From the IMG/VR virus record IMGVR_UViG_3300032038_000076, positions 845 to 64,844 of that record: a stretch of 64,000 nt of DNA; one strand, given 5' to 3'. The DNA is from a virus. Lineage: Duplodnaviria > Caudoviricetes. Shown one piece after another: positions 3 to 41,518 of the stretch. The position numbers were made by a program, and so were the translations under genes. The notes below the pieces were generated by a model. It worked only from the letters and a program-made list of their open reading frames with translations, made no database searches and had not been told where the DNA came from. Numbering within the stretch: position 1 is the first letter of the stretch; each line of letters starts with the position of its first letter.

Positions 3-3000
3 TTGATAGAAGATCTTAAAACTTTACAAGACTCTCAAATAATTACTAAAGAAAAATTTGAGTAGTTAAAAAAGGCTTTTGATGACGCGAATCAGGTTGG
101 AGCGTCTCAAGATCAAGTTATAAATTTTTATGAAAAATTAGATGCTGCATTAGAAGAATTGAGACCAAAATTAGATCCAGCTACTTTTGAAAAACTTTCT
201 GCGGCATTACATGGAGATTTTTCGCAGGCTGCAGATGAAGCGACTGAAAAAGTACGAACATTATCAGAAACTTTTTCAGATGCAATGGATCGAATGTTTA
301 ATGCTCAAAAATTAAAAACTTTTACTGATACGGTTGGAGCACTTGGTCGTATTGGTTCTGGAATTTCACAACTTAAAAATTTAGGTGGAATTTGGAATAA
401 AGAAGATGTCTCTATAGGAGATAAAATATTACAAACTTTAACAAGTGTTGGATTTGCTTTGCCGATGGTTGTTTCAGGAATAAAAAATCTTGGGGCAGCA
501 TTAAGTCTAACAGGAAAAACTTTATCAGCTTTTAATGGTATTGCAATTGCTTTTACCGCTATCACTACTGTTATTGGTTTTGTAAATTCTGCCTTAAAAT
601 AGCATCAAGAAAATTTAAGAAAATAGAAAGAGTAGGCTATTGAAACTCAAAATAAATTACAATAGCAAATTGTTAAACAAGAATAGTTATGTAAATCCTT
701 AGATGATTTAAATGAAAAAACTCAAAGTGGATAGTTAAGTAGAGCTGATTTAAGATCTGAAATAGATGAATTAGTTAAATCTTATGATATTGAAGATGAA
801 CGAATTAAACAATTAAAAGGAACTTATGAAGAGACGACAAAAGCTATTCGTTAGATGCGTGAATAGGCCTTAACATCTAAAGAAGAGTCAACAGCAACTG
901 AATTGGAAAATGCTCGTGGATTAGTTTGGAATAAAAATAAAAATGTTGGTGTTGGAACAGCAGAATGGCGAGACTATACTAATGGTAAATATAATTTAAC
1001 TTTATCTGAAAGTGCTCAATATGATGATCAAAATATTAGACAAACAATGATGTCTATATTGAAAAATAGTAGTCTTTATACTCAAATTGCTGGTGAAGAA
1101 TTTGATCCTAATGCTGAAGATCCTTACGCTTCTTTTTCGCAAATTGCTTTATCCACTGAAGATTCTGTAGAAGGTTTTATTAGTCTTTATGAAGAGCTAT
1201 TAAGAATACAAGAATAGGCTAGTAAACAATTAGGAGATAATGTTGAAAATTCACAATCGTTTCAATTAATTACAGATTGGTTAAATGGAATGTCTTAGGC
1301 TTATGATCAATATACTAAAGCTATAGAAGATCATAAGACTGCAGTTGCTCAATTATAGGCATTTAATTTATAGAATTAGTTTAAAAATATTAAATCTTAT
1401 ACAGATTATATTGAAGCTAAAAATAAATTAATTCAAAGTATGAAAAAGTCTGGAGATTACGGATAGGGTGAATCTCTTGATATGGAATCTTTATTGGCTG
1501 ATGCTGACAAAATAATGTCTGATATGTATTCAGATGTATTGGATAAATATTCTTTAATTGATCAAATAAAAAATAAATTTTCTGAGAGTTTTGGTGATTT
1601 GATGCCAATTGAAGCGATTCAAACCTTAGAAAATATGTCTATTGAACAGTTAGAAGAAGCTTTATCTTTAAAAAATACTTCTGTTATAAAGTCTTGGGAA
1701 GATTTTATAAAAATATTACAATAGACAGAAGAAGCTGCTGATGGTGTGGCGGCCGCAACAGAAGGGGCAAAAAAAGCTGGCGAAATTGTTCCTAAAGTTA
1801 CTCCAGAATAGATGCGTCAACAAGCTATTGATCAATATAAAAATTATACTTCTGTTGAAGATAAAGTTAGAAAAGGTTAGAATATTTCAGATGAACAATT
1901 CAGCTTATTAGATGCATAGGTTCAGCAAATGTTTGCAGATACAGCTGATGGTATGCATAAATTTATTGGTGATGCTGAAATATTTTATGAAAAAATCAAT
2001 AGTTTAAAGGTTGATGGTTTTGAAAATGCTATAAAATTTGTTCAAGACGAAATTGATAAATTATCTCAATATCAAAATCGTCAAAAATTTGATTATCAAA
2101 CATTAAACCAAGAAGCTTCAAGATCAGTAAAAGACACAAATGGTGTTGCTGTTAATTTAAATGAATTGATGGCTGCTCAACTTGATTATATAAAAACTTT
2201 TGGCAATGCATCCACTCAACAAATGGATATTTGGGAAAAGAATTTGGATGCATTAATGTCTGGTCAGCTTTTTGGTCAACCATTGCAAGATTTTGCTACT
2301 TAGTTAGCTAGTACCGTTAGCAATATAGGAATAGTTGATGTTGAAGGGCAATTAGCTACATTAAATCAACTTCTTCCTGGCTTATCTAATCAGTTAGCAG
2401 ATGCTAGTAAAGGTCCAAATGGATTATCCGCAGATTAGATTAGACAAAATGCTGCAGATGAATATAATAAGTATCAAGGTCTTATTGATGCTACTAAAGA
2501 TGGCGGAACTATTTCAGAATAGCTGTTTAATAGTTTAAATGAAGGCATCCAAGGATTCTTTGAAGTTGCTGGCGTTGGTATTTATAAATTAAAGGATAAT
2601 GCATAGGGATTTGAATAGGCAGTTAATAAAATAAGTTTAGATTCTTTACGTAAAGGGATTGAAGATTTAGAAACAGCAAAAGCTTCTGCCTAGAGTAATT
2701 TTAATAGAGGTAATTAGCTAAGAGATAGAGGTACTTATATTAATCAAGATACTTCTGCCGCAGATTTTGCTAAATATTCTAAGGATTATGATCTTTTAAA
2801 GAAACAAGCTGATTTTATAAGTAAAATGAATCCAGATGACGCTGACATTCAAAAACAAGTTGAAGGTTGGAAATAGATAATAGAAGCCGCGGAAAAAGCT
2901 GGTAGCGGAATTAAAAAGTCTATTTTAAATTAGATAATGTCTGGATTAGATAATGCTATTGCTCAAACTTCACTTTGGGGAAATGAATAGTAGGCTAAAT

Positions 3001-6000
3001 TAGCTACTATGAAATAGGAATTAGCTGTTTTACAGCAAATGGCTATTGAAGAAGCAAATAATAAAAAAATTGCAGAGGCTCAAAATCAAAAAGATTAGGC
3101 AATTAATCAAATACATAATTATGATGATGTTCAAAATGCTATACAAGGTGGAGAAACTATTACTGAAGATCAGTTTAATATGCTTCCAGATGCAGTAAAG
3201 GCTTATTTTGAAAATACTGGAGATTTTACATATGCAATAAAAGATGGTATGGAAGCTGTTGCTTCAGCAGTAGTAGACAGCGCTCGTCAATATGCCTTTG
3301 AACCAGCTCTGGCTACAATAGGAGATTAGCTTTATAAATTTGATCAATTAAAGGCTAATAATTTTGATTATTAGAATGTTCAAAAACAAAGTGACACTGA
3401 TCAATATGGTCAAATAAATAAAGATAATCTTGAATTAAAATTACAATATTTAGATGCTCTCGGTTTAGAAGATCAAAAAGTTCAAGATATTATTAATAAA
3501 GGCCGTGAGATGATTGAAAATGGCAAGGCTGATCATTAGGTTATACAAGATATTAATAAATTATATAATGAGCAAGGCGATCAAACTGAACAATTAACAG
3601 AAAGGCATAAAGAATTAAGTGAAATCCAATTAGGAATGCTAGAAGCTCAATAGGCATTAAATTAGCAAAATTCTTTTACTCTTGATTCAGATATTAAAGT
3701 TGATTAGTTAGAAGATCTTACTGAATATTTAATGGATTTTGCTAAATAGCTTGAAGATATTCCAGATTACTTAGAAGAAAACGAAGAAGCTGCGAGAGAT
3801 TATGCTCAATCTATTTTAAGATTTGATGATGCAATTAAAGATACTGTAAAAAATTATGATAAATGGTCTAAAGCTTTAGATAGTGGAAGTATTCAAGAGC
3901 AAGCTGAAGCAGTCGCCGAATTAAAAGATACTTATGCTGATTTATTAGACATTAGTGAAGAAAGTCTTACTCCAGAGTTTTTATCTGATCCACAAAATTT
4001 AGAAAATTTAAGAGCGGTTACTGAAGGAGCTGAAAATGCAGAGGAAGCATACCTTGCTTTACAAATGGCTGCGGCAGACGCTATTTTAATGGACGTAGAT
4101 ATGGATGCTTCCGGTTTTTATAATGAATTGGATGCATTAACTACTCAATATTTAGGTCAATCAATTGGTGAATTAACAGCAGATGCTAATTTAAATGATG
4201 ATCAGTTTTTAGCAGCATTAAGTAATTTATTATCTCAACTTGGTATTGGTGCGACTCAGGCTCGAGAGCTAATGAAAAATTTTGGTATGAATGTCAAAAT
4301 TAAAGAAGCTTAGCCAAAAACCCAACAAGTCTCAACGTCCGCACAATATTGGGTGCCTGCAACTTATGAAGTAGAACCTATGGATGTTAGTGGCTAGGAA
4401 AAACAAGGAACTTATTATGCTTTAAAAAAGGTTAGAGATGGTTATTGGGTTCCTAGAACTGAAACTCATACTGAATTAGTTGCACCTGGTGCTGGTGCGA
4501 TTTAGGTAGAAAATGCAGGGGTAACTGCTGGTGGTGATGTTAAATATGAAAACGCCACAAATGGTGGCGGTTCTGCCGGTGCAGCTCGTCGTGCTCCGTC
4601 TGGAGGTGGCGGAGGAGGCCGCGGTGGCGGAGGAGGCCGCGGTGGCGGAGGAGGAAAAAAAGGAGGCGGCGGAAAAGGCAAAAAAGGCAGCGGTTCTTCT
4701 AAAGAAAAAGAAAAATAGAAAGAAAAATAGAAAAAAGAAAAACATGAAGATTAGGTTGATATTTATCATGACGTAAATAAAGAACTTAGTAATATAGAAC
4801 GAGCTTTAGGACGCCTTCAAAAGAAACAGGATAAATTATGGGGTAAGCAATTACTTAATAATTTAAATAAACAATCCGCCTTACTTGAACAACATAAACA
4901 AAAGCTTCAAGAAAAACTTGCTTTACAGCAAAAAGACCTTGCTAATAAACGTAAAGATCTTGAATTACTTGGTGCTACATTTGATGAATATGGTAATATT
5001 TCTAACTATGTTGAACTTGTTAGTAAGAAACAATAGATCTTAAATAAATTAATTGATAAATATAATAAACTTGTTGAAAAATATAATAAAGCAACAAGTG
5101 AAAAAAAGAAAAAAGATCTTGAAGAACGTATTTAGAAGTTTGAAAAAGAAATTAAAGATGCTGAAAAATAGCTTGACGACTTAGAAGATAAGGTTAAAGA
5201 CTATGATTCTCTTCAAGAAGATATGGCAGATGTTCAAGATCAAATTGAAGATGATATTCAACAACAAATTTAGATCAATATAAAGAAGTTTAGAATGTCC
5301 ATTGAGATTCGTCTTGAGATGGGCTAGGCTGAACGTGATTGGAATAAATTTGTGCGAGAAGTTATGCATCATACCGATGTTATTAAAGATTCTCCATTCG
5401 ATAAAATTTTCCAAGATGCTAAACAGCAATTAGATGATGTAATGTCTTACTTTGATGTTCATGGTGCGGGAAGCACTTTAACTGCACTTGTAAATCAAAT
5501 GTATGCAACTAAAGATCAGATTGAACAAATTAATGCTACTGGGTGGTCTAGCATTTATGGTGATAATAATGGAACTGCTATGTAGGATCTTCAAAGTGAT
5601 CTTGATACATTAATGTCTCAAATGTAGGATATTGAATCCTTATTGGATAATATTGATCAAGCCTATCTTGATACTATAGATGATGTGCAGGATAATTTTG
5701 ATAAGCAAATAGATGACTATGAATATGTTACAGATTTAATTGAACATGATATTGATTTATTAGAACTTTTATATGGTGAAAAGAATTATAATGCTATGAA
5801 TGAGTATTATACAACCTTAGAAAGAAATCAAACTAATCAATTAGATGCATTGCGGAAGCAGGCAGAGTTCTGGAAAAAGCAATGGTAGGGAGCTGCCGCG
5901 GCAGGAGATTCTGAAGCTGCAAAGAAATTTGAAGAAAATTATAGATAGGCACTTAATAATTTAAATTCTGTTATTGAAGAAGCTGCACAAACCATTCAAA

Positions 6001-7763
6001 ATAAATATATTAATGTTATTGATAGAATTTTTGATACATTAGATAAAAAAATTTCCAATGGTCTTGGAACAGGTTATTTAGATATGTAGTGGTAGTTAAT
6101 GAATAAAAATGCTGAAACATATTTAGATACTGTTAATGCTGCTTTTGCAATTCAAGAATTACAAATAAAATATAATAAAGCTATTAACGATACTAAATCT
6201 ATTAAAAATCAACAGACATTAAAAGAATTAATGGATGAACAGTTAGAGAATTTAAGAAATAAGGAAAAGATATCTCAATATGATGTCGATAGAGCAGAAA
6301 AATTATTACAAATTGAACAAGCTAGAATTGCTTTAGAAGATGCCCAATCTAGTAAAACTTCTTTAAGATTAAAACGAGATTCTCAAGGTAATTATTCTTA
6401 TCAATATGTTTCTGACGCGGATAAGGCGTTATAGGCTCAATAGAAATTAAATGAAGCACAAAATGATTTATATAATTTTGATAAATAGGCTTATAAATCT
6501 AATTTAGATGAAATGCTTGCCATGTGGGAAGAATTTCAAGAAAAATATAGATAGATTGTTCTTGACACTTCTTTAACAGAAGAATAGAGAATTAGGGATT
6601 TAGCTTTATTAAGAGAAGAATATGGAGAAAAAATAAATGCTCTTACAGAAAAAAATTCCATTATAAGACAAAATCTTCTTAGTTCTACTTTTGATAATAT
6701 TAATAATTTATATCAGCAAGATGTGGCTAATTATCAACAAATGTCCGATGAATAGAAGAATATTTTAATGGGTGATTTAATTCCTATGTGGACTAGCGGC
6801 ATTCAGAAAATGGCTGATAAAGTGGCTAAATAGGGTGGATTTATTCCAATGTGTAAAGAAGCTTTTGAATAGGTCTATAACGCAACAAGAAAATATAAAG
6901 AAGAATTAAATGATATGGCTCGGGTTGCGGGCATTAGTTTAATGGATGTTAGATCTGGTGTAGATGAATTATCTATGTCTTTCCAAAATCTTATTATAGA
7001 TAATAATGAATTAATAAGTTGTATGTTCCAAGAAATAAGTGCAATTCAAGAGCTACGAATGGAAGCATAGGCTTTAGTAATGCAATATCAAAATGTTTAT
7101 TAGTCTGCACTACAAGCGGCATCTGCAATTCATGAGTTTATTCAGGCTCAACGGGCGCAAGCTGCTGCACAAGCCGAAATGGTAGCCGCTGTACAAGCGC
7201 AAGCACAACAAGCTCAACAACAAGCTGCTTCATCTTCTTCAAGCGGAGGCGGGAAAAATAAGAATAAAGGCGATCTTTGGGTTAAAAATGCTGATTCTAT
7301 AACTCTTGAAGATGGAACTTAGGTTATAACAGAACCTAATAAATGGTATAATTTAAACACTGGTTAGCAAGAAAATCCTCCAAAAAATAAAAATAAAAAT
7401 AATAAGAAAAATAAGAGTTCTAAATTCGATACTGGTGGATATACTGGAGATTGGCATTCTTCTGAAGGCAAATTCGCTGTGCTTCATGAAAAAGAATTAG
7501 TATTAAATCAATCAGATACTAAAAATCTTTTAAATTCTGTTTCAATTTTAAGAGATCTTGCTAATAATGCTCAAATTAATATAGCTTCTAAATTAGGAGA
7601 TTTAGGATCATTTGGTAATTCTATTTTTGAAAATAAAGATACAATAGAACAAAATGTGCAAATTTCTGCAACATTCCCGAATGTTAATAGTAAACAATAG
7701 ATTGAAGATGCTTTTAATGATTTAATTAATCTCGCCGCACAACGTGCAATGAGAAATAGATAA
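3..7763 (+). CDS. Tape measure protein (5'-truncated by window edge, >2580 aa, many in-frame TAG read-throughs)
   Basis: Track ORFs at 159, 903, 1482, 1929, 4065, 5352, 5643, 6099 and 7479 share one frame separated only by TAG; first TAA at 7761. Helical/coiled-coil composition; C-terminal FDTGGYTG...VLHEKELVLN motif typical of TMP ends. Confidence 0.85.
4605..4655 (+). repeat. 18-nt tandem repeat (ggtggcggaggaggccgc) encoding a Gly/Arg-rich linker in the TMP
   Basis: Two full and one partial copy; GC-rich patch in AT-rich DNA. Confidence 0.9.
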
Positions 7764-13571: not shown

Positions 13572-14060
13572 TCACTCCCAATTAATCTAATTGTCAAATT
13601 TTTCCCAATAGGCATCAAATATACAAATAGCATCTGCCTAATCATCATTTACTTTTATATTATATTTATCCTATACATATTTAATGTCTTGCATTTTAAG
13701 CGGGTCTCTTTTTATACCTGGTCCCTGTTTTATTTTAAGCGCTGCCCGCCACGTTACAGCATTAATATATTCCTACTCAATAGAAGGATTAGCTTCATGC
13801 GCGGCGATGATAATTGCACCTTGCAACCACATTAATATTTTATTAGTGTGTGAATTATATTCTGGTCTAACCTACTATATAATAATTTTATCTATTTTAT
13901 TTTCTTTAATCAGCTTAGATATCTATTCCCGCATTTTTATTATTCTTTTAACTGTATCTTTTGATGCGGCAGTTATGCAACCATGCTTTTTAAGCTTACC
14001 ATTCTATCCTATTGCATATCCAGTTGAATGAGTTGAAGCATCTATTGATAATATTTTCAT
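13572..14060 (-). CDS. ruvC: RuvC-like Holliday junction resolvase (162 aa, 8 TAG)
   Basis: ILSIDASTHSTG ... DKIII**VRPE ... VTWRAAL ... NDD*ADAICI; not in the ORF track because of TAGs. Confidence 0.8.
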
Positions 14061-17140: not shown

Positions 17141-17947
17141 ATGGGCGTATATTCTAAAAATGGTATTCAGTTAGATCAAACTTTTAATTATGATACTAGT
17201 ATAAAAAGTATTAATCATCGAGGTTTTTCCAACCTCGCTCCAGAAAATACTCTTCCCGCCTACGTATAGTCAAAACGTCATGGATATACTTATGTAGAAA
17301 CAGATGTTTCTTTTACTTCTGATAATATACCTGTATTACTTCATGATGCAACAATTGATAGAACATCTAATGGTACTGGTACATTATCTAAAATGACATA
17401 TGATCAAGTAAAAACATATGATTTTGGATCTTGGAAAGATGCTAAATATACAGGAGTATAGATTCCTACTTTGAATGATTTTTTAACAATATGTAAGTTA
17501 TTAGGATTAAAACCTTATATAGAATTAAAAGATAATGGAGCATATACAAATGCTCAAATTAAGCAAATTGTAGATATGGTTCAAAGACATGGGATGAAAG
17601 AAAACAGTACTTATATATCATTTAACGCAGATTATCTTCAAGCAATAAAAGAATTAGATAGCAAAGCGCGATTAGGATTTTTAAAAGGCGCTCAAGCTAA
17701 TTATACCTAGGATTTAGTTATTTGTAATAATTTAAAAACATCTACTAATAAAGTATTTTATGATGTTCGTTATGATAAGGTAACTTAGTAGATGATAGAA
17801 GCATTATCTGCGCAAGATATGCCTATTGAGGTATGGACAATTGATGATAAAGAGACTGTTTGGGATTTAGATGATTATATAACTGGAGTAACGACAAATT
17901 CATTAAATGTTGGAAAAATATTTGTTGAACATGTTTTATTGCAATAA
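17141..17947 (+). CDS. Glycerophosphodiester phosphodiesterase (GDPD), probably virion-associated (268 aa)
   Basis: INHRG...APENTLPA...YVETDV...LLHDATIDRT...IELK...EVWTID...GVTTN. Confidence 0.9.
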
Positions 17948-17991: not shown

Positions 17992-20900
17992 ATGGATAAA
18001 TTAACTGCCATAAAAATTAAGCACGATGATGGAACATTGTCTAATGAAATTCCTATTAGTGTTTTTGTATAGAATATTGTATGGGACAATACTCATACTT
18101 TAGTTGATGTCCTCGGTAATGTTGATTTGATGTCAGGAACTATCCAGCAACAGATTAAGCAATTACTCAATAATAAAGTTGATTATACACAATTAGGAAA
18201 TTATGTAGATCGTCAAATTAGTATTGATGTAAAAAAATGGATGGATCAAAATATTAATTCGGCAGGTTCAGTTGTTATAGATACTAGTTTAACAGTATCT
18301 GGTGCTGCTGCAGAAGCTGAAGCAACTGGAAATAGAATTCAAACATTAACCACTCAAACTCAAAATCAAATACAAGCATTAAATACTTAGCTCACAGAGC
18401 AAATGCAAACTTTAAGTGATGATACTTAGGAAGCATTATCAACTTTAAGTTCTGAAACTCAAACACAAATGCAAACATTAAATACTCAACTTACAACGCA
18501 AATGCAAACATTGAGTGAAAAAACTTAGAGTTCTTTATAGACATTAAATAGTGATATTTATAATCGAATGCAAACATTGAGTAATTAGACTCAAAGTCAA
18601 TTAGAAGCATTAAATAGTACATTTTCAGATTAGTTAGATACATTGAGTGAATAGACTTAGACAAAATTACAAACATTAAGTACGCAAACTGCCACTCAAT
18701 TTTAGACAGTAAATGGTTAGATTCAAACTTTAACTAATAATTTAGCAACTACTAATGGTACAGTTGGTTCACTTTCTTCATCTCTTAGTACTCTTTCTGC
18801 AGATACCACTAATCAAGCTGAAGCATTAAGTTCCGAAATTCAGACTGTTGCAAATAATGTAGAAAATATTAACTCTACAGTTGACTCCGTTAATCTTGCC
18901 CTTGAAGATTTTGTTAATGATGGATATGTTGAAAATGGAGTCGCTTATTTTGTACATAATGGAGAAATACTCTTCCAAATCACTGGTATTGGTGGTGGCG
19001 GAGGAGGCGGTGGCGGCGGAGGCGGAGATACTAATAATGCCACACTTACCGTCGTTAATAATACTGGATGGTTATCAAGAACAATTGCCTCAGGTGCTTC
19101 TTGTCCAATTGTTATTAATTGGAGTTCTATAGAAGATAAGATGCCTACTGGGGATGGTACTGCACAAATTTCAATTAATGGAATTTTAAAATCAACTCAG
19201 GGCATTCGACAAGGAGATGTAACAATAGATATTGGAAGTTATGTATCTGCAGGTTCTAATATTGTAAAAGTAAGAATATCAGATGTTTATAATAATTCTA
19301 GAACTATTAATTTTAATGTAACAGTAGTAGTTTTATCTATTAGTTCTACATTTGATAGTTCTGTTGTTTATACAGATACGATTCCATTTCCATATACACC
19401 TGTTGGGGCAGTTCCTAAAACTGTTCATTTTGTTTTAGATGGAAGACAATTAACTACTCAACAGACTTCTGTGTCTGGAAGACAAATTACTTATGTTATT
19501 CCCGCACAAAGTACAGGAAGCCATTCTTTAAAAGTTTATTTTGAATCTGAAATTAATAATGAAGTAGTTAGTTCAAATGAATTATATTATGAGTTTATTT
19601 CAAGTGCTACAGGTAGTAATACTGTGATTATTACGAGTCCTTATAATAAGACTTCATAGCAACAATATACTTCAATTGTTATTCCATATACAGTATATAA
19701 TCCAAATAATTTAACTTCTGAAGTTAGTATATATGCAAATAATGAATTGTTATCTACTCAAATTGTAGATAGAACAGAGCAATCTTATACATATAGAGCA
19801 GAAGTTGATGGGCCCTTAGAAATTAAAATTCAAAGTGGTAGCGCAGTTAAAATAATTAATATTAATATTATAAAATTAAATATTAATGTAGCTGCATAGA
19901 CTGAAGATTTAGTTTTATATCTTACTTCAAAAGGAAGAAGTAATCGAGAACTTAATCCTGCAATATGGAAATATCATGATATTGATGCAACATTTACTAA
20001 TTTTAATTGGGTTTCAGATGGATGGCAAACAGATTCAGAAGGTATTGTTTGTTTAAGAGTTTCTGGAGATGCTAGAGTAACAATACCATATAAATTATTT
20101 GGCGCTGACTTTAGACGAGCTGGTAAAACAATTGAAATTGAATTTGCTACAAGAAATATTATTAATTATAATACAATAATTTTATCATGTTTTAGCGGTG
20201 GCCGTGGTTTGACCTTAACTTCACAAAGAGCTAGACTTGTTTCAGAGCAATCTACTATTAGTACTCAATATAAAGAAGATGAACATATTCGACTTACTTT
20301 TGTAGCTCAAAAATCTTCTGAAAATAGATTTTTAATGGTTTATATTAATGGTATTCCTTCTGGTGTTGTACAATATCCAGATGATAATGATTTCCAACAA
20401 GATCAACCTGTTGATATTACTATTGGTTCAAATGATTGTGCAATAGATATTTATAATATTAGAGTATATGATAATAGTCTTACTCATCAACAGGTATTGG
20501 ATAACTGGATTGCAGATACACAAAATGGAAGTTTAATGCTTGAACGCTATACACGAAATCAAGTTTATGATGAATACGGAAAAATTGTTACTACTAATCT
20601 TCCTGGTGATCTTCCATATTTTATTTTAAATGCAGAAGAATTGCCACAATTTAAGGGAGATAAAAAGATTATTTCTGGACAATATGTTAATCCAATGTAT
20701 CCATCTCAAAGTTTTACATTTACTGGCTGCCAAATTAATGTACAAGGTACATCTTCTGCACCATATGCAAGAAAAAATTATGACATGCAATTCAAAAATG
20801 GATTTGAAATTGGAAGCGAACATTCAAAGAATTATACACTTGATCCAAGTGTTCTTCCGTTTAATCGTTTTGTTTTAAAAGCTGATGTTGCTTCTTCTGA

Positions 20901-23900
20901 AGGCGCTAATAATGTTGAACTTGTAAAACTTTATAATGATGCTTGCCCATATAAAACACCAGAAATGGAAGAAGATCCAAAAGTTCGTTGGGGTATATTT
21001 GGATTCCCAATTGTTGTATTTTGGAATGATTTAGTTACTAATGAAGTAAAATTCCTTGGAAAATATAATTTTAATTTCCCAAAAAGAGCACCGGCTCCTT
21101 ATGGTTATAATCCAGATTCAGAAAATGAAGATATTGCAAAAATGGAATCTTGGGAATTCCAAAATAATGTATCTTCATTAATGTTATTCCAAAGTGACTA
21201 TTTTAATGAAGAAATGCGAACTGATCCAGATACCGGTGAGACAAAAGAAGCTTGGCGTTTTGATTATGAAGCAAGATTCCCATCTGATGAATGGGTTGAT
21301 TACAGTACAATACAAGAATTCCAAAGCTTTGTATATTCTACATGGAGAGAAAATGCGACGAATCAGACACTTAGTTCTCCAGTCACATATAATGGAGTTA
21401 AATACACTAAAGATACAGCTGAATATCGTCTTGCAAAGTTTAAAAATGAATTCCCAACTTATGCAGAATTAGATAGCTTTATTTTTTATTATATTTTTAC
21501 AGAATTGTTCTTATTAGTAGATAGCCGCGCTAAAAACCTTTTTATTGGTTTTAATGGATCTCCTGTTACAGTAGCAGGAAGAAAAGCTTTACGTAAAGCC
21601 ACGGCTCAACCATATGATATGGATACCGCTATCGGAACTAATAATGAAGGTACACTTGTTTATGGCTATAATCTTGAAGATATTGATCCAGGACAGATTT
21701 ATACTGGAAAAGGATCTGTACTCTGGGAAAATCTTCGTGATTCTTATTCAACAGAAATCGCAAGAATGTATCAAACTTTAAGAACTGGTAACATTTTATC
21801 ATATAATACAATTGAACAAAGATTTGAAGATCATCAAAGCAAATGGCCAGAAGCAATATGGATTGAAGATTCACAATTTAAATATCTTGATCCTCTTATT
21901 AATCCAGATCCTGGGAAAAAAGCGACATCTACTTATCTTCCAATGCTTCAAGGTTCAAAAGAACAGCAAAGAAAATGGTGGTTAAGTAATAGATTTAGAT
22001 ACATGGATAGTAAATGGCATGCGGGTGATGCATTAATTACACCAATTCAGTTAAGAGCATATTCTAAAGGCAATATTACTGTAACACCTTATTTTGATAT
22101 CTATCCGACTGTACGTTATGGTTCTCATACTGTTAGTGAACGTGGCATGCATTGGCAGCCAACCACTTTAGTTTGTCCAGCAGAAATACCTACATTTAAT
22201 GATACAGAAATTTATATATTCTCTGCTCCTCAAATTGCAAAGATTGGAGATTTATCTCCACTTAAAATTGGCCTTGCAGATTTTAGTGGTGCTATTAATT
22301 TACAAGAAGTAAAAATTGGTGATGCTTCTAGTTCATATGATAATACTAATTTATATCAAGTTAGTTTTGGTTCAAATGTATTGCTTAAAAAAATTGATAT
22401 ACGAAATTGTAGTGGACTTGGTGACACTACGATGGAAGGACATTCACAACAGACTGTTGATATTTCTAAATGTTCTGTTATTGAATAGGTATATTTTGAA
22501 GGAACTAAAATTACAGCTGTTACACTTCCAAATGGTGGTACATTAAGAGTCCTTCATTTACCCGCAACCATTACTAATCTGACACTTATAAATCAAAAAG
22601 CTTTAACTGATTTATCTGTTGCTGGATATAATAATATTTCTACATTAAGATTGGAGAACTTAGTTTCTAGTATTGATACGTTAGCTATTTTGAGAGCTGT
22701 ACCAATGGGAGCCAGAGTTCGTTTAATTAACATTAATTGGGAAACAGATGATTTAAGTAGTATTTTTACTTTATTAAATTCTATGAGAGGATTGGATGAA
22801 TCTGGTAATAATACAGATATAGCTCAAGTTAGTGGTACAATTACCACGACTAGTACAACTCAAGCTTTGATAGATGAATTTAATACAAAATATCCTTATA
22901 TAAATATTGTAGCAGATTAGATTATAACTACACTTACTTATAAGACTTGGAATGGAGATACTACTCTTAAAACTATTTTATGTAGAAATGGAGTACCGCA
23001 AGAAGAAGCGCCTGAAGTGCCTGCAAGAGAAGAAACTGCTCAATATGTATTTACTGCTGTAGGTTGGAATACTACACAAGATGCTTCAACAAATGATATT
23101 CATGTAAGATTAAATGTAACAAGTGATAGAATTGTTTATGCTGCATATAGTAGAGCTACTAAGGCTTATACTATAACTTGGATGAGTAATGGAACAGTTC
23201 TTAGAACTGATACAAATGTTCGTTATGGAACTAAACCTAATTGGGGAACTTCAATGCCAAAAGATGAATATGGCAGAACTGCAATTAGATGGGATTATAA
23301 TGTTAATACAGGTATTACTGGTGATACAATTATTAATGCTAAATATATTCCTGAATATACTGCAACATTTGTGTTAGCAGCAGTTGATAGTGACACTGAA
23401 AGTCAAAAAACGTTATATAGTTATAAACTTGATCAAGAAACTGTACCTGTATACGGTGGAAAGCCCCCAGTTTCAATACAGGGTAATTCTACTGATTTTA
23501 AATTTATTGGATGGAGTCCATAGTTAGCACCTATTCAAACTAATACAACCTATGTTGCACAATTTGAAGATAATAGAGCATTAACTCTTCAATATTTAAG
23601 TCGTACTATTAAAACATATGAATCCTCAGAACAAACTAAACTTCCAGCTTATTCATTTTATAATTCACCAAATTTAACTACTATAATTGCTCCTGTTACT
23701 TCTATTACTACATAGGCTTTAGAAGCCGTTCCTAATTTAAAAGTTCTTGATTTAGCAAGTCCTTTCAATGTGACAGTTAGTAATTCACTTTAGAATAAAC
23801 GAAAACTTGAACATTTAATTATTAGAAATACTTCATTAAATAGTTCATATTTATCATTAACAGGAACTCTAATTGAAAATCGGAGAGGTGCTATTTATGT

Positions 23901-24624
23901 ACCTACAAATTTAGTTTAGACCTATAAATCAAATGCTTATTGGGGTCGTTATATTATTGCAGATATTAATGATTATCCATTAACTGATTATAGCACAATT
24001 TTAGATGATTGGGATACTATTGTAGCTGGAACTAATTATCTTAATTATCCTATTGGTGGTACTAAGCTTTTAAATGTTGGAAATGTACAAGTTTATATGC
24101 AATTAGTAGCTAAGAATACAGACATTCTTTCACGAGATCATAGTTCTAAAGCAAAAATGACTTGGATAACCAGAGATATTTATACAAGACATGCAATGAA
24201 TACATCTGGTTCTAGTAATAATGGATGGGCTGGCACTGAAATTAGAACTTGGTTAAGAACTGTTGTATTGCCATTATTACCTGAAGTAATTCAAAACAAT
24301 ATAAAAGTAGTTGATAAAACTTATCGCACTAAAGTTCCAAATGATACAACTTTAACTATAGAAGATACAATTTGGATTCCTTCTCTTCGAGAAATAGGAT
24401 TAACTAATTCATCATATATTGAATCTGAAGGTCCTATATATTCATCATTATTTAATTCTGATGCAAGTAGAATTAAATATACATTTTCTAATGATCTTGA
24501 TTGGTGGTGGACAAGAACAACTTATAATTCAAATGGTCGTTTTTCATGTAGTAGTACCACTGGAACTCATACTTATAGTTCTAGTAGTAGTATCGGTGGA
24601 GTTGTTTTTGGTTTTTGTCTTTAA
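17992..24624 (+). CDS. Giant tail fibre/receptor-binding protein (2210 aa): coiled coil, LamG-like, CotH-kinase-like, LRR-like and DUF6273-like C-terminus
   Basis: Track ORFs 18127, 19141, 20209, 22651, 23017 and 24097 share one frame joined by TAG; IDIYNIRVYD, VDSRAKN, PYDMDT and WWWTRT...GVVFGFCL motifs. Confidence 0.75.
18340..18740 (+). repeat. 11-residue (hendecad) Q/T/L-rich coiled-coil repeat
   Basis: QNQIQALNT*L/TEQMQTLSDDT/*EALSTLSSET/QTQMQTLNTQL..., about 11 units. Confidence 0.85.
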
Positions 24625-28978: not shown

Positions 28979-31252
28979 TCACCCTCCTTTAATTATTTCG
29001 TATTGATAAGTAATAGTAGCTGAAACTGGAACGCCTACTTCATTAGCATCTACATCCACTAAATACCATTTCCCACCTCTATAAATATATACATTATAAT
29101 CTTCTTTGGTTAATAAAGAATAATCAATAGTAGGTTCAAGTAATACTCCCTATTCTGTTACTGTTAATAGTCTTGACTAATTATTATAATCTACATAATC
29201 ATGTACAGCATTGGTTCTATTAATAATCATTCTATAAAGAGTATTTGTTCTTGGGGACTTAGGAAAATCTTCATAATAACCATCTGCATATGTTTTTACT
29301 ATGGCCTAATGTTTACCGCAAAAATAACAATCTTTAATATATTCATTAACGCCTTGTAATGATAATACTTTATTTGCTGTAAGAATCGAACGAGATGACG
29401 CTTCTTTATCATCTAGTTTTTGAATCTAAAAAATGGCTCTATCTGTTGAAGGTTTAACATCTATTTTTAATATATTTATTAAATTTTTATTAGTAGATGA
29501 AGAAATTCGATTATAAATTTTATTAAAAATAGAATCAAATGCTTCAAAGCTTGCAGTAAAACTACCTTTACCATATTCATGAAAATAATTATTGACAATA
29601 TTATATTTTTTATAATTATCAATAGTAGGCTCATTAATTTCTACCGCAGTCGCGCTAAATGAATATAACCGTCGTCCTAATTCATTCATAGGTTGTAAAT
29701 TAATGTCCATTAATTTAACTAATATATTTCCCTAAGTTAAAGAACGAAATAATTTTGCATCATATTTATAAAGAAAATTTTCAACCTATTGTCTAAATTC
29801 TCTTTCATAAATATAATCTTGATATATATTAATATTATTATTTTCATTATAATTATCATATAAAGATTTAGAATTTTTATATAATTCAAATTTTGATGTA
29901 AATGGTTCTGCAACAATAGCTGAATGGAAATTGTTATCATAATAATTTGGATTATACCAATCAGCATTGTCTATTAAAGAAGTAATTAAGCCACCTATTG
30001 AAAAAGTTCTATAAAAATTATTCCCATTTCTTTTAATGTAAGGGAACTGAGAGCCTAAAGTAACTTGTTGAGATTCCATTACATTATATCTTAAATTAGA
30101 TACGATAGGATTAAATTGAATCTTTAATTGTTTTGATCCATTTGTTAAAAACATATCTTCAAAAACACACATAATAGGCTAATCACTATCAACTAACTTC
30201 CCAATTCCGCCTGTCTATTGAATTCTATATTTATACCACACTCCACTTTCAATTGAAGTATCATACCATATGAAGCCAGATTGAGGGGTTGCAGCATGTG
30301 GAATAGTTTTTATAGTTTCCCATTGAGTAAAATTATTTCTAGAAGAAGATCTTCTTATTATTAAATCTTTATCAGTATATATTGAATTATGAAAAGCAAC
30401 GCTAATTTTAATTCTTCCATTGTCTTCATCTGCCTCAAATGAAGTTATAGCATCTAATAAGAAACTTCTTTGAAAATTAATTTTAAAATTAAAACTTATT
30501 GTATCAGTATATAAATTTTTTGTAGTATAGTTTAAAACTAAAATATAGTTTATATCATTTAATAAGTCATATTTTATTTCACAATTAATTTCATTTGGAT
30601 TATAACTGTTTGTATAAATCTAATTACTTGTAAATATTAAATTATTATTAGATATAATATCTTGATATATTTTTATATTATAACTTCTTAAATATTCTTG
30701 CTCTTTAACATTGTTATTATAATACATTTTACCTACAATTTCTGTTAAAGGAGCCTATAAAATTGTTACTCCACCTAAATCAAAATTCTAAATAGAGATA
30801 CGTGGCTGTTCAATTCCTTTAATTAAACATACAATAGACCATTCTGAAAAATAATCTTTATTATCAGATAACCAAGTATTTAATTTTGTTCCTGTAGATG
30901 GCGGATCTGCTGCTTCTGTAGATGTAAATCTTAATTGAACTTTATAAAATTGATTTAACTAAAATACACCATTTACTAAATCAGAAGGAGCAATCTAAAT
31001 ATAATATTTATAGTTATCTAAAACCGACTAATCCTATTTAATAGTTGTAATTTTAATACCAGATGGATATAAATTAGTTTTAAAAGCAGAAGCATTTGTC
31101 TTCTGATTAATTAAAGTTACCTGAACATTTTTAATATCTTTTATTTGATTAAAAGATGAAAGAGAAAAATGTATTTTACACGTTACTGATCTAATAAATG
31201 CAGGTATAACATCAGGTATTATAGGTGGATATAAATTAGAGACGATACTCAT
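28979..31252 (-). CDS. Distal tail/baseplate-like structural protein (757 aa)
   Basis: Track ORFs 31034, 29786 and 29426 in one frame; NLYPPI N-terminus; FRSLT*GNILVKLMD; stop TGA at 28979. Confidence 0.65.
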
Positions 31253-35592: not shown

Positions 35593-35666
35593 CAGCCCAG
35601 GCTGGATTCGAACCAGCGAAAATGCAGGAGTCAAAGTCCTGTGCCTTACCACTTGGCGACTGGGCT
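35593..35666 (-). tRNA. trnQ: tRNA-Gln(UUG)
   Basis: Cloverleaf, loop CT-TTG-AC, A1-U72, G73. Confidence 0.9.
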
Positions 35667-37454: not shown

Positions 37455-37566
37455 CAAGTCACATTTTTAAGTCTGGATTCGAACCAGAAATGTCTATTTT
37501 TCAGATAGATGCCTTAACCGTTTGGCTACTCTCGGAAGGACCGAGTAAAATTGCTGTATGTGACTT
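37455..37566 (-). ncRNA. CAGCAA-stem RNA E3 carrying a tRNA-Phe(GAA)-like core
   Basis: aagtcacat-acagcaa...atgtgactt enclosing D arm, TCTAT-CT GAA AA-ATAGA and a T arm. Confidence 0.7.
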
Positions 37567-37906: not shown

Positions 37907-38431
37907 TGGGCCGTGATGGAGTTGCACCACCCGAGTCAATTGACAACGCATTTATTCCTGGTTCGAGAATTGAACTCGATATTGAAAAGTTTGAAATCCT
38001 TGATTATTTTTTGTTGGTTCAAAACGTAAAGTAATTTGTTTCCTATTACCAGCTTCAATAATATCTTTTACTGGAATATTCCACATATTTAATTCGTTAT
38101 CCACACAAAATAAATAATCAAGCTCAAGATGATTGAAAATATTATCATATTCTGTACCTTTTGTTCCGCCACTTGATCTTAAGCTAATAGTTTTATCTTC
38201 AGTAGCAGTAGCTTTACATTGAACAGTATAAAATTTATTATCTTTTTCAATCACCAAATCATACCATTGAGTGTCATTCATTGGAATGGAAATAGTATAT
38301 TTATTAATTGTAAAATAATTAATAGCCATACTTAATCCTAATCTTCCCAACTATTTACGGTTAATTTTACTCATTTTCAAATCACCTATCCAGACCAGTG
38401 CGCCCCGCTACTACTTACGGTATAACGACCC
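37907..38431 (-). tRNA. trnY: Split tRNA, probably Tyr(GUA): 5' exon 38396-38431, 3' exon 37907-37954, 441-nt insertion
   Basis: GGGTCGT/ACGGCCC+A acceptor, GCGCA/TGCGT anticodon stem, long variable arm; loop CTG|TAAA. Confidence 0.75.
37952..38374 (-). mobile_element. PD-(D/E)XK (PDDEXK_5/I-Ssp6803I-like) homing-type endonuclease ORF inside the tRNA (140 aa, 1 TAG at codon 8)
   Basis: SIPMNDTQWYDLVIEKD...VQCKAT...LDYLFCV; ATG at 38374. Confidence 0.8.
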
Positions 38432-38440
38432 AAATAAAAA

Positions 38441-38524
38441 CAAGATACATTCAAAGGGTTTGAACCTTTTTAATTATTTTAGCCTAAATAATTTTTATCC
38501 TCCGAAATTGCTGTATGTATCTTT
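38441..38524 (-). ncRNA. CAGCAA-stem RNA E4 with degenerate tRNA-like core
   Basis: aagatacat-acagcaa...atgtatctt; internal hairpin and T arm AAAGG-TTCAAAC-CCTTT. Confidence 0.65.
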
Positions 38525-39803: not shown

Positions 39804-39877
39804 TCACCCGACTGGGATTCGAACCCAGGATCCACTGATTTAGAGTCAGTTATGTTAGACCGCTCCACCATCGGGCG
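39804..39877 (-). tRNA. Amber suppressor tRNA (anticodon CUA)
   Basis: CGCCCGA TG GTGG AGCGGTCTA ACAT A ACTGA-CT CTA AA-TCAGT GGATC CTGGG TTCGAAT CCCAG TCGGGTG A. Confidence 0.93.
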
Positions 39878-40986: not shown

Positions 40987-41060
40987 CTGCCAGAGAGAGG
41001 CTTGAACTCTCGACCTTCGGTTTAACAGACCGACGCTACCACCAACTGAGCTATCTGGCA
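40987..41060 (-). tRNA. trnN: tRNA-Asn(GUU)
   Basis: TCGGT-CT GTT AA-ACCGA; U1-A72, G73. Confidence 0.9.
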
Positions 41061-41061
41061 T

Positions 41062-41332
41062 TAATGTAGATGCTTGCCACAGCTTCAACCTTGTTCAGGT
41101 GTCTACATCACCTTACTCCAACATATCTCTTGGATGAAAGAACCTCTTTTCCTATCCCGAGGTAAAGGTATCTATAGATTATGGCTTATAGACTATGTGC
41201 CAGACCGTATTATAACTCTCAATCGGACGAACGACTGTATCCTCGACAGCTCAGATTTATATTGGCTGAGATAAATCAACTCAATACAATAAATACACTT
41301 ATGATGGTTCAGGCGGAACATCCTAAACCAAA
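41062..41332 (-). ncRNA. Candidate structured RNA between tRNA-like gene and tRNA-Asn
   Basis: Shared 5' motif; several hairpins. Confidence 0.45.
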
Positions 41333-41403
41333 TTGACAAAAAAGGATTCGAACCTTTATTTCTCCTTTTCACGGGAGCGTCTTCTCCTTTAGACGATTTG
41401 CCA
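41333..41403 (-). tRNA. Degenerate tRNA, anticodon ambiguous (GTG or GAA)
   Basis: Good acceptor, D and T arms; anticodon arm CTCC-CGTGAAAA-GGAG non-canonical. Confidence 0.55.
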
Positions 41404-41518
41404 AAACTCCATTTCTAGCGCGCCTAATGGAGCCAAGAAGATGCGCATCTTCTCTAAGATTTTTTTTGTTAATTTTAGGATAAAATCTCTAAAAATTCCT
41501 TTTATTGTTTTATAAAAA

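Follow-up and report, generated by a model that had tools for sequence, protein, structure and literature searches.

Which amino acid does an amber-reading tRNA deliver in a phage that uses TAG as a sense codon? The question is raised by a tRNA gene with anticodon CUA at positions 39804-39877 (minus strand) of a 64,000-nucleotide stretch of DNA from a large cattle-rumen phage, hereafter called the window, which makes up nearly all of a 64.8-kb IMG/VR record (32% G+C, estimated to be about half complete). That TAG is a sense codon in this phage is clear from its reading frames. The standard code leaves only fragments, and reading through TAG gives frames of 2586, 2210, and 1506 amino acids with 69, 19, and 16 TAGs, respectively, which TAG alone interrupts. 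The first of these is a tape-measure-like late gene whose 5′ end is cut by the window (3-7763, plus strand), and the second a tail-fibre-like gene (17992-24624, plus strand). TAG terminates none of the 30 longest ORFs of the window. In-frame TAG is found mostly in late genes, and many genes of the part between 31 and 64 kb have none at all. The frequency of GAG also varies between the two kinds of genes, from 16.2 per thousand in the TAG-free ones to 5.4 per thousand in the TAG-containing ones, where TAG itself occurs at 16 per thousand. GAG is hence three times rarer in the latter, as if TAG had taken part of its share.

The CUA tRNA is a real and conserved tRNA. ARAGORN and the Rfam model RF00005 (61.0 bits, E 4e-11, model positions 1-71 of 71) place it in the same interval on the minus strand, and direct reading together with a structural parse gives an ordinary cloverleaf of 74 nt with no encoded CCA. 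The 5′ strand of the acceptor stem (C1 G2 C3 C4 C5 G6 A7; 39871-39877) pairs with 39805-39811 by a Watson-Crick pair, a wobble, and five further Watson-Crick pairs (C1-G72, G2.U71, C3-G70, C4-G69, C5-G68, G6-C67, and A7-U66); the 3′ strand, U66 to G72, extends over 39804-39811 when the discriminator A73, at 39804, is included. The D arm (39852-39868, 17 nt) contains G10.U25, U11-A24, G12-C23, and G13.A22 in its stem and has a 9-nt loop, with three nucleotides (U, C, and U) between G18G19 and A21. The anticodon C34 U35 A36 (39841-39843), which reads TAG, lies in the loop CUCUAAA, one base (C36 to A36) from the loop of a cellular tRNA-Glu(CUC) in locus L139. The variable loop is 5 nt long. In 11 related phage loci there are homologues whose stems have compensatory changes, which rules out a chance match. 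These features had been described in an earlier reading of the DNA made without database searches (the sequence-only reading), and all of them are as claimed. The same holds for the two phage tRNAs to which it contrasted the suppressor: the tRNA-Gln(UUG) at 35593-35666 (minus strand; ARAGORN, Rfam, and parse) has A1-U72, G73, and a short D arm (15 nt), and the tRNA-Asn(GUU) at 40987-41060 (minus strand; ARAGORN and Rfam) has U1-A72 and G73.

Other descriptions of this gene were discarded. ARAGORN labels it tRNA-Pyl, a name that follows from the anticodon alone. Pyrrolysine tRNAs have a compact D loop, a 3-nt variable loop, and a lengthened anticodon stem, and the tRNA of the window has an ordinary cloverleaf with 9-nt D and 5-nt variable loops. 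A 76-nt version of the ARAGORN fold, with an additional U(-1)-A73 pair, is not kept in relatives, as L002 and L042 have G at position -1. Minimum-free-energy folding of the tRNA does not give the cloverleaf (z -1.75), which is usual for single tRNAs.

The meaning of TAG was assessed by comparison with related phages. A total of 69 related loci were retrieved through the DUF2828 gene, which is free of TAG, and four relatives were retrieved whole (94 to 100% estimated completeness, 133 to 181 kb). All frames were translated with X at TAG, and the ORFs of the window were aligned to those of the relatives. Opposite the TAGs of the window, the relatives have mostly E (88 cases), followed by K (32), N (19), and Q (13), and opposite the TAGs of the relatives the window has E in 106 cases and Q in 28; because counts over related loci are not independent, weight is placed on the results per site and per genome and on a control with a Gln outcome. 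Per site, the majority partner of TAG is E at 18 sites of the window and Q at 2, and fractional counts over the 143 aligned TAG sites give 39.9 for E and 5.5 for Q. The Glu partner codon is mostly GAA, which is two changes away from TAG. Per genome, the partners of TAG were fitted by likelihood to the substitution profile of each amino acid in the same alignments. For the window and for its relatives G002 and G003, every pair fits Glu best, and Gln comes second in most comparisons; such a signal gives the residue that selection expects at TAG, and a minor share of Gln would escape it. In the control, the same method applied to G006 and G007, two distant relatives of the same family, gives Gln as the best fit in every pair. 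These comparisons strongly support that TAG means Glu in this phage and not Gln, which is the outcome that the sequence-only reading had predicted from the tRNA. To judge from the same alignments, the phage family holds both codes, and the window falls in the Glu group.

The RuvC-like resolvase gene (13575-14060, minus strand; Pfam RuvC, E 1.1e-5) provides a more specific example. It has eight in-frame TAGs, two of them in the motif III-TAG-TAG-V, which is found in the window, G002, and G003; at these two codons G006 and G007 have E-D. A profile of five RuvC proteins of the family, aligned with the E. coli RuvC structure 1hjr, puts the first of the two TAGs (13875-13877) on E66. The match is weak (E 0.004) and agrees with Pfam; the RuvC protein of the window taken alone has no match in PDB, 1hjr being reached by the five-sequence profile only. 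Glu66 of E. coli RuvC is one of its four catalytic acidic residues.

Three other genes say little about the residue. The five TAGs of the GDPD gene (17141-17947) fall in variable columns of the alignments to solved structures, and a search for relatives of this gene in viral contigs found one locus. For the PD-(D/E)XK ORF (37955-38443), whose TAGs are at the N-terminal edge, no structural homologue of use was found. The internal repeats of the tail fibre first seemed to indicate Gln at TAG, but Glu fits equally well, so they are no evidence.

Of the 69 related loci, 14 have a CUA tRNA; two more come from the whole genomes G006 and G007. Each phage was called as Glu or Gln from its alignments, except L004, which was put in the Glu clade by neighbourhood only, and nine representative suppressors (five from the TAG=Glu clade and four from TAG=Gln phages) were parsed arm by arm. 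The Glu phages are the window, L002, L005, L008, L009, L010, L013, L038, and L042, with L004, L014, and L037 as probable members; the Gln phages are G006, G007, L039, L041, and, weakly, L046. The type of suppressor follows the meaning of TAG across the family. Suppressors of Glu phages have a Watson-Crick pair at 1-72 (C1-G72 or G1-C72), mostly G2.U71, A or C at position 73, mostly three nucleotides after G18G19, and no extra arm. Suppressors of Gln phages have an unpaired U1 facing C72 or U72, G2-C71, G73, a shorter D loop in four of the five (L046 has three nucleotides after GG), and, in G006 and G007, an extra arm of about 20 nt. Among the nine parsed suppressors the split is clean, and those of the Glu clade mostly have a 17-nt D arm. 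The ARAGORN folds of L041 (which equals L039 at these positions), L013, and L042 fit the two classes. The folds of L009, L014, L037, and L038, with U at position 1 or irregular, neither confirm the split nor clearly break it; two of these, L014 and L038, which are of the Glu clade, also admit a fold with U1-A72 at the price of one extra linker nucleotide, and this would weaken the rule that Glu suppressors have no U1.

The extra arm of G006 (L092:4263-4353) and G007 (L099:16319-16408) measures about 20 nt and forms a stem-loop within the variable region, as in class II tRNAs. Apart from it, the body of these suppressors is Gln-like, with an unpaired U1 and G73. To our knowledge, there is no tRNA-Gln with such an extra arm.

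The D arm of the L004 type, used as a pattern against one genome per species (185,579 species), gives 54 cellular matches, 47 of which are tRNA-Glu, mostly from Bacillota. The matched Bacillota tRNA-Glu genes have G1-C72, G2.U71, C3-G70, C4-G69, C5-G68, A73, and U11-A24, so what the sequence-only reading had taken as established for tRNA-Glu holds in them. Compared with a Clostridia tRNA-Glu(CUC), the L004 suppressor is the same at 14 of 15 acceptor positions and at all 17 positions of the D arm. Its identity to the suppressor of L010 is 83%, and the latter is 86% identical to that of the window; by this chain the tRNA of the window belongs to the L004 lineage. Like Bacillota tRNA-Glu (CUC and UUC), the tRNA of the window has G2.U71, C3-G70, C4-G69, C5-G68, and A73, that is, the whole acceptor set except 1-72. 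It also has the tRNA-Glu features of the D arm, namely U11-A24, an unpaired purine-purine 13.22, and three nucleotides after G18G19. With the CUC isoacceptor it shares in addition C34, U35, A37, and A38; among the anticodon determinants of tRNA-Glu, U35 and A37 are thus present, and C36 is replaced by A36. It differs from Bacillota tRNA-Glu in this A36, in the inverted first pair (C1-G72, where other TAG=Glu relatives have G1-C72), in the sequence of the D stem and of the T arm, and in the variable loop, which has 5 nt instead of the 4 nt typical of tRNA-Glu, in which nucleotide 47 is missing. The sequence-only reading had already set the variable loop apart as not Glu-like; the suppressors of L004 and L005 have 4 nt there. 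The exact D-arm type of the window combined with its T loop has no match among the 185,579 prokaryote species genomes, and hence this D-arm type is phage-specific.

How would such a tRNA be charged? In complete relatives, neither a GluRS/GlnRS-type class Ic synthetase domain (PF00749, searched in five genomes) nor a release factor domain (PF00472, searched in three E-type genomes and G007) is found, and therefore host enzymes must do the charging. The known identity rules for glutamine are informative here. GlnRS identity lies in G73, U1-A72, G2-C71, G3-C70, G10, U35, G36, A37, and U38, and for E. coli GluRS C36 is a determinant (PMC9976931). The amidotransferase GatCAB is driven mainly by U1, as U1-G72 costs 6-fold and G1-C72 100-fold, and G1-C72 together with an extra D-loop U abolishes amidation (PMC1635274); bacterial GatCAB is also hindered by an extra D-loop base (PMC2811023). 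These two studies agree with the premise that GatCAB needs U1-A72 and is blocked by additional nucleotides in the D loop. Where GlnRS has G73, a weak or open U1-A72, G2-C71, G3-C70, and U38 as its set, the tRNA of the window has A73, C1-G72, G2.U71, C3-G70, and A38, and where GatCAB uses U1 and a D loop without extra bases, it has C1-G72 and one nucleotide more after G19. The suppressors of the Gln type in the sister phages conform to the GlnRS rules and to the GatCAB rules alike.

The CUA tRNA is probably the decoder of TAG in this phage, one that would deliver glutamate. It would be expressed from the tRNA island, and its CCA end, because none is encoded, would be added by a host enzyme. The GluRS of the host would then charge it with Glu, which G2.U71, C3-G70, C4-G69, C5-G68, A73, U11-A24, the Glu-sized D loop, C34, U35, and A37 would allow. 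Position 36 is the sole difference from tRNA-Glu(CUC) in this list of GluRS features, and the tolerance of A36 is the least secure step. The firm C1-G72 pair, A73, and G2.U71/C3-G70 would oppose GlnRS, which prefers a weak or open 1-72 pair, G73, G2-C71, and G3-C70, and the lack of U1 together with the extra D-loop nucleotide would oppose GatCAB. Late genes, with virion, lysis, and recombination functions, would thereby be read with TAG as Glu.

Which of the two escapes matters depends on the host and on the route that it uses for Gln. The route proposed in the sequence-only reading, a non-discriminating GluRS in a Firmicutes host that lacks GlnRS, followed by escape from GatCAB, may be the one in use. 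The glycerophosphodiesterase of the virion module and the tRNA-Glu ancestry of the suppressor point to a Bacillota host. The five gut Clostridia examined all carry the GlnRS marker, and GatB was found in no more than two of them; among Erysipelotrichaceae the GlnRS marker domain is present in 4 of 41 genomes, and U1-A72 is kept. Among the cellular genomes examined, tRNA-Gln with A1-U72 occurs in Christensenella (G012), in both of its genes (L225 and L229); this genome has a GlnRS-type gene, and GatB was not detected in it. This would fit a rule by which U1 is retained only in organisms that form Gln-tRNA by way of GatCAB. Because the tRNA-Gln of the phage has A1 and so lacks the U1 that GatCAB requires, and because all five gut Clostridia have GlnRS, a GlnRS-bearing host is no less likely, and we lean slightly toward it. 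In such a host, the operative step would be escape from GlnRS rather than from GatCAB. A contig of the phage family (L116:1-6552) is binned in an Erysipelotrichaceae MAG. The contig is a tRNA island with 14 tRNA genes, one of which, at 4782-4855, encodes a CUA tRNA of the Glu type, and the identity of its proteins to those of related loci ranges from 51 to 71%; the bin is a weak hint about the host or a binning artefact.

If GlnRS could read C34 and U35 of this tRNA, or if GatCAB acted on it slowly, the tRNA would be charged partly with Glu and partly with Gln, and TAG would be ambiguous and tolerated at most sites. GlnRS is apt to charge amber suppressors (quoted in 10.1101/2021.08.26.457843), Gln is the second-best fit in most comparisons, and a few sites of the window align mainly with Q, such as those at 30997 and 31764. 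However, the ratio of E to Q (39.9 to 5.5) is like that at genuine Glu codons and unlike that of a mixture, TAG is found at a catalytic Glu that Gln should not replace, several features of the tRNA oppose Gln identity, and the sister phages in which TAG is Gln carry a clearly different suppressor. Mixed decoding is thus unlikely.

Delivery of Glu by other than ordinary charging is also rather improbable. The tRNA would then be charged by a dedicated factor, either another GluRS-like enzyme of the host or a phage protein so far unrecognised, or a phage product would retune a host synthetase. In favour of this, A36 stands in the place of a GluRS determinant, much of the phage proteome belongs to no known family, and in some bacteria two GluRS enzymes divide the tRNA specificity between them (PMC9976931). 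Against it, a search of five complete relatives gave no class Ic synthetase domain, and the acceptor end and D loop copy those of cellular tRNA-Glu, which argues for the ordinary enzyme. Charging by the ordinary GluRS of the host is the simplest reading.

In recoded gut phages, only the changes of TAG to Gln and of TGA to Trp have been seen (Borges et al., 10.1101/2021.08.26.457843), and Gln at TAG has been confirmed by proteomics (Peters et al., PMC9523058). The phage of the window is like these code 15 phages in several respects. As for the suppressors of crAss-like and Lak phages, the CUA tRNA is encoded by the phage, the synthetase is not, and a host enzyme is used; in-frame TAG is found mostly in structural, lysis, and recombination genes and is absent from many early genes. 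It is unlike them in the residue, since TAG is Gln in code 15 phages by prediction and proteomics and aligns with Glu in the window, as assessed by comparison, and in the suppressor, which lacks Gln determinants and has the acceptor and D-loop features of tRNA-Glu. That TAG would nevertheless be ordinary code 15 Gln, delivered by a Gln-accepting suppressor, is very improbable. Code 15 is the sole TAG reassignment reported for phages, and CUA is one base from CUG, but the TAG sites are not Gln in homologues: over the 143 sites E widely exceeds Q, as it does in every comparison, and the same method does give Gln in G006 and G007. Furthermore, TAG falls on the RuvC catalytic site, and the Gln determinants of the acceptor end are all absent (U1 or a weak 1-72 pair, G73, G2-C71, and G3-C70), as is U38.

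Glutamate at TAG is known from a very different system. In the nuclear code of peritrich ciliates (NCBI table 30), TAA and TAG are both Glu. The likeness lies in a cognate suppressor tRNA through which TAG means Glu; unlike the ciliate code, which is eukaryotic, applies to the whole genome, and includes TAA, here a virus would impose a TAG-only reading on a host with the standard code. In the literature searched, no phage code with TAG as Glu was found, the matches for glutamate reassignment being ciliates and notes on contamination. What would be new is TAG as Glu by means of a suppressor with Glu-type identity marks, the recoding of late-gene TAG by a phage suppressor tRNA being known. The list of natural genetic codes would gain a new member, used by a virus of bacteria. 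The Glu reading would also mean that annotation of the clade with table 15 (TAG=Gln) puts a wrong residue at roughly 1.6% of late-gene codons, catalytic sites included, which would affect protein databases, structure predictions, and proteomic searches. Sister phages with Glu-reading and Gln-reading suppressors would provide a natural test of the Glu/Gln identity positions in gut Bacillota, and natural amber suppressor tRNAs that insert Glu are possible tools.

The body of the tRNA is less uniformly Glu-like than its acceptor end. When the anticodon is masked, the nearest cellular tRNAs are tRNA-Asp (29) and tRNA-Glu (28), which cannot be separated. The acceptor end with position 73 matches tRNA-Glu at 9 to 11 of 15 positions, the G006 and G007 suppressors at 7, and tRNA-Asp at 3. 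The D arm matches tRNA-Asp at 15 of 17 positions, the sister Gln-type suppressors at 11 to 13, and tRNA-Glu at 12. The T arm, by contrast, equals that of the G006 and G007 suppressors at 17 of 17 positions and cellular tRNA-Glu at 10 to 13, and over all arms, leaving out the variable region and the anticodon, 47 of 66 positions agree with the G006 and G007 suppressors and 41 to 42 with cellular tRNA-Glu. Hence the tRNA-Glu-like body described in the sequence-only reading stands for the acceptor end, position 73, and the size of the D loop, but not for the T arm, which is that of the sister Gln-type suppressors, nor for the D stem or the variable loop. That TAG would be Asp is hardly credible, since this tRNA-Asp-like D arm, the 5-nt variable loop, the masked alignment, and the frequency of D opposite TAG against distant relatives are outweighed by a likelihood for D that lies 56 and 63 log units below that of E against close relatives (-56 and -63), by A73 in the place of G73, by the lack of G34 and C36, and by the acceptor stem.

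The tRNA looks like the suppressor chassis of the family fitted with the acceptor end of a tRNA-Glu and a D loop of Glu size. With the Gln-type suppressors of G006, G007, L039, L041, and L046 it shares the phage family, the gene neighbourhood, and the anticodon loop, and identity outside the variable region is 71 to 79%. One may then tentatively suppose, although we think it doubtful, that the meaning of TAG flipped between Gln and Glu within this family of rumen and gut phages, possibly more than once, by a remodelling of only the identity positions (1-72, 2-71, 73, D-loop length, and extra arm) of one suppressor lineage. The Glu suppressor of the window has its whole T arm in common with the Gln suppressors of the family and a tRNA-Glu-like acceptor end, and its close relative L002 shares 9 of 10 anticodon-stem positions with these Gln suppressors. 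In a quick tree of the single gene DUF2828, Glu and Gln phages are sister groups in two places. This tree was set aside for the order of events, as it derives from an unfinished search and one gene and conflicts with RuvC similarity for L013. If true, such a flip would be a natural switch of tRNA identity that alters the genetic code of a virus, and two amber codes would compete in the same habitat.

The suppressors of L013 (949-1024) and L010 (1006-1081) are only one base apart, and the DUF2828 proteins of these loci have 60% and 79% identity, respectively, to that of the window. By RuvC, the L013 genome groups with the Glu clade. This pattern suggests mosaic genomes or transfer of the tRNA island.

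The island in which the CUA tRNA lies is a region poor in TAG. It contains two further elements of irregular type, a tRNA-like one at 41332-41404 with an irregular anticodon loop (no isotype from ARAGORN, which gives '???'; Rfam 46 bits) and a partial tRNA match at 37470-37530 (model positions 6-65, 47 bits) for which ARAGORN makes no call. In a close relative, L075:10222-10296 (G002:90222-90296) is a tRNA-like gene whose anticodon, UUA, would make it a reader of TAA; ARAGORN calls it tRNA-Stop, and it has a Glu-type D arm and a weak acceptor stem with mismatches.

In public phage records, the segment 39000-43000 has no match at megablast level. Contigs from rumen metatranscriptomes match parts of the island with zero mismatches, and none of the RNA or DNA contigs listed from the rumen searches covers 39804-39877. 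For the segment 38500-43500, at least half of the sampled words are present in nine runs from eight studies and 48-49% in five more runs from five further studies; most of these runs are labelled bovine gut metagenome. Bovine gut metagenomes of at least a dozen studies contain the DNA of the window.
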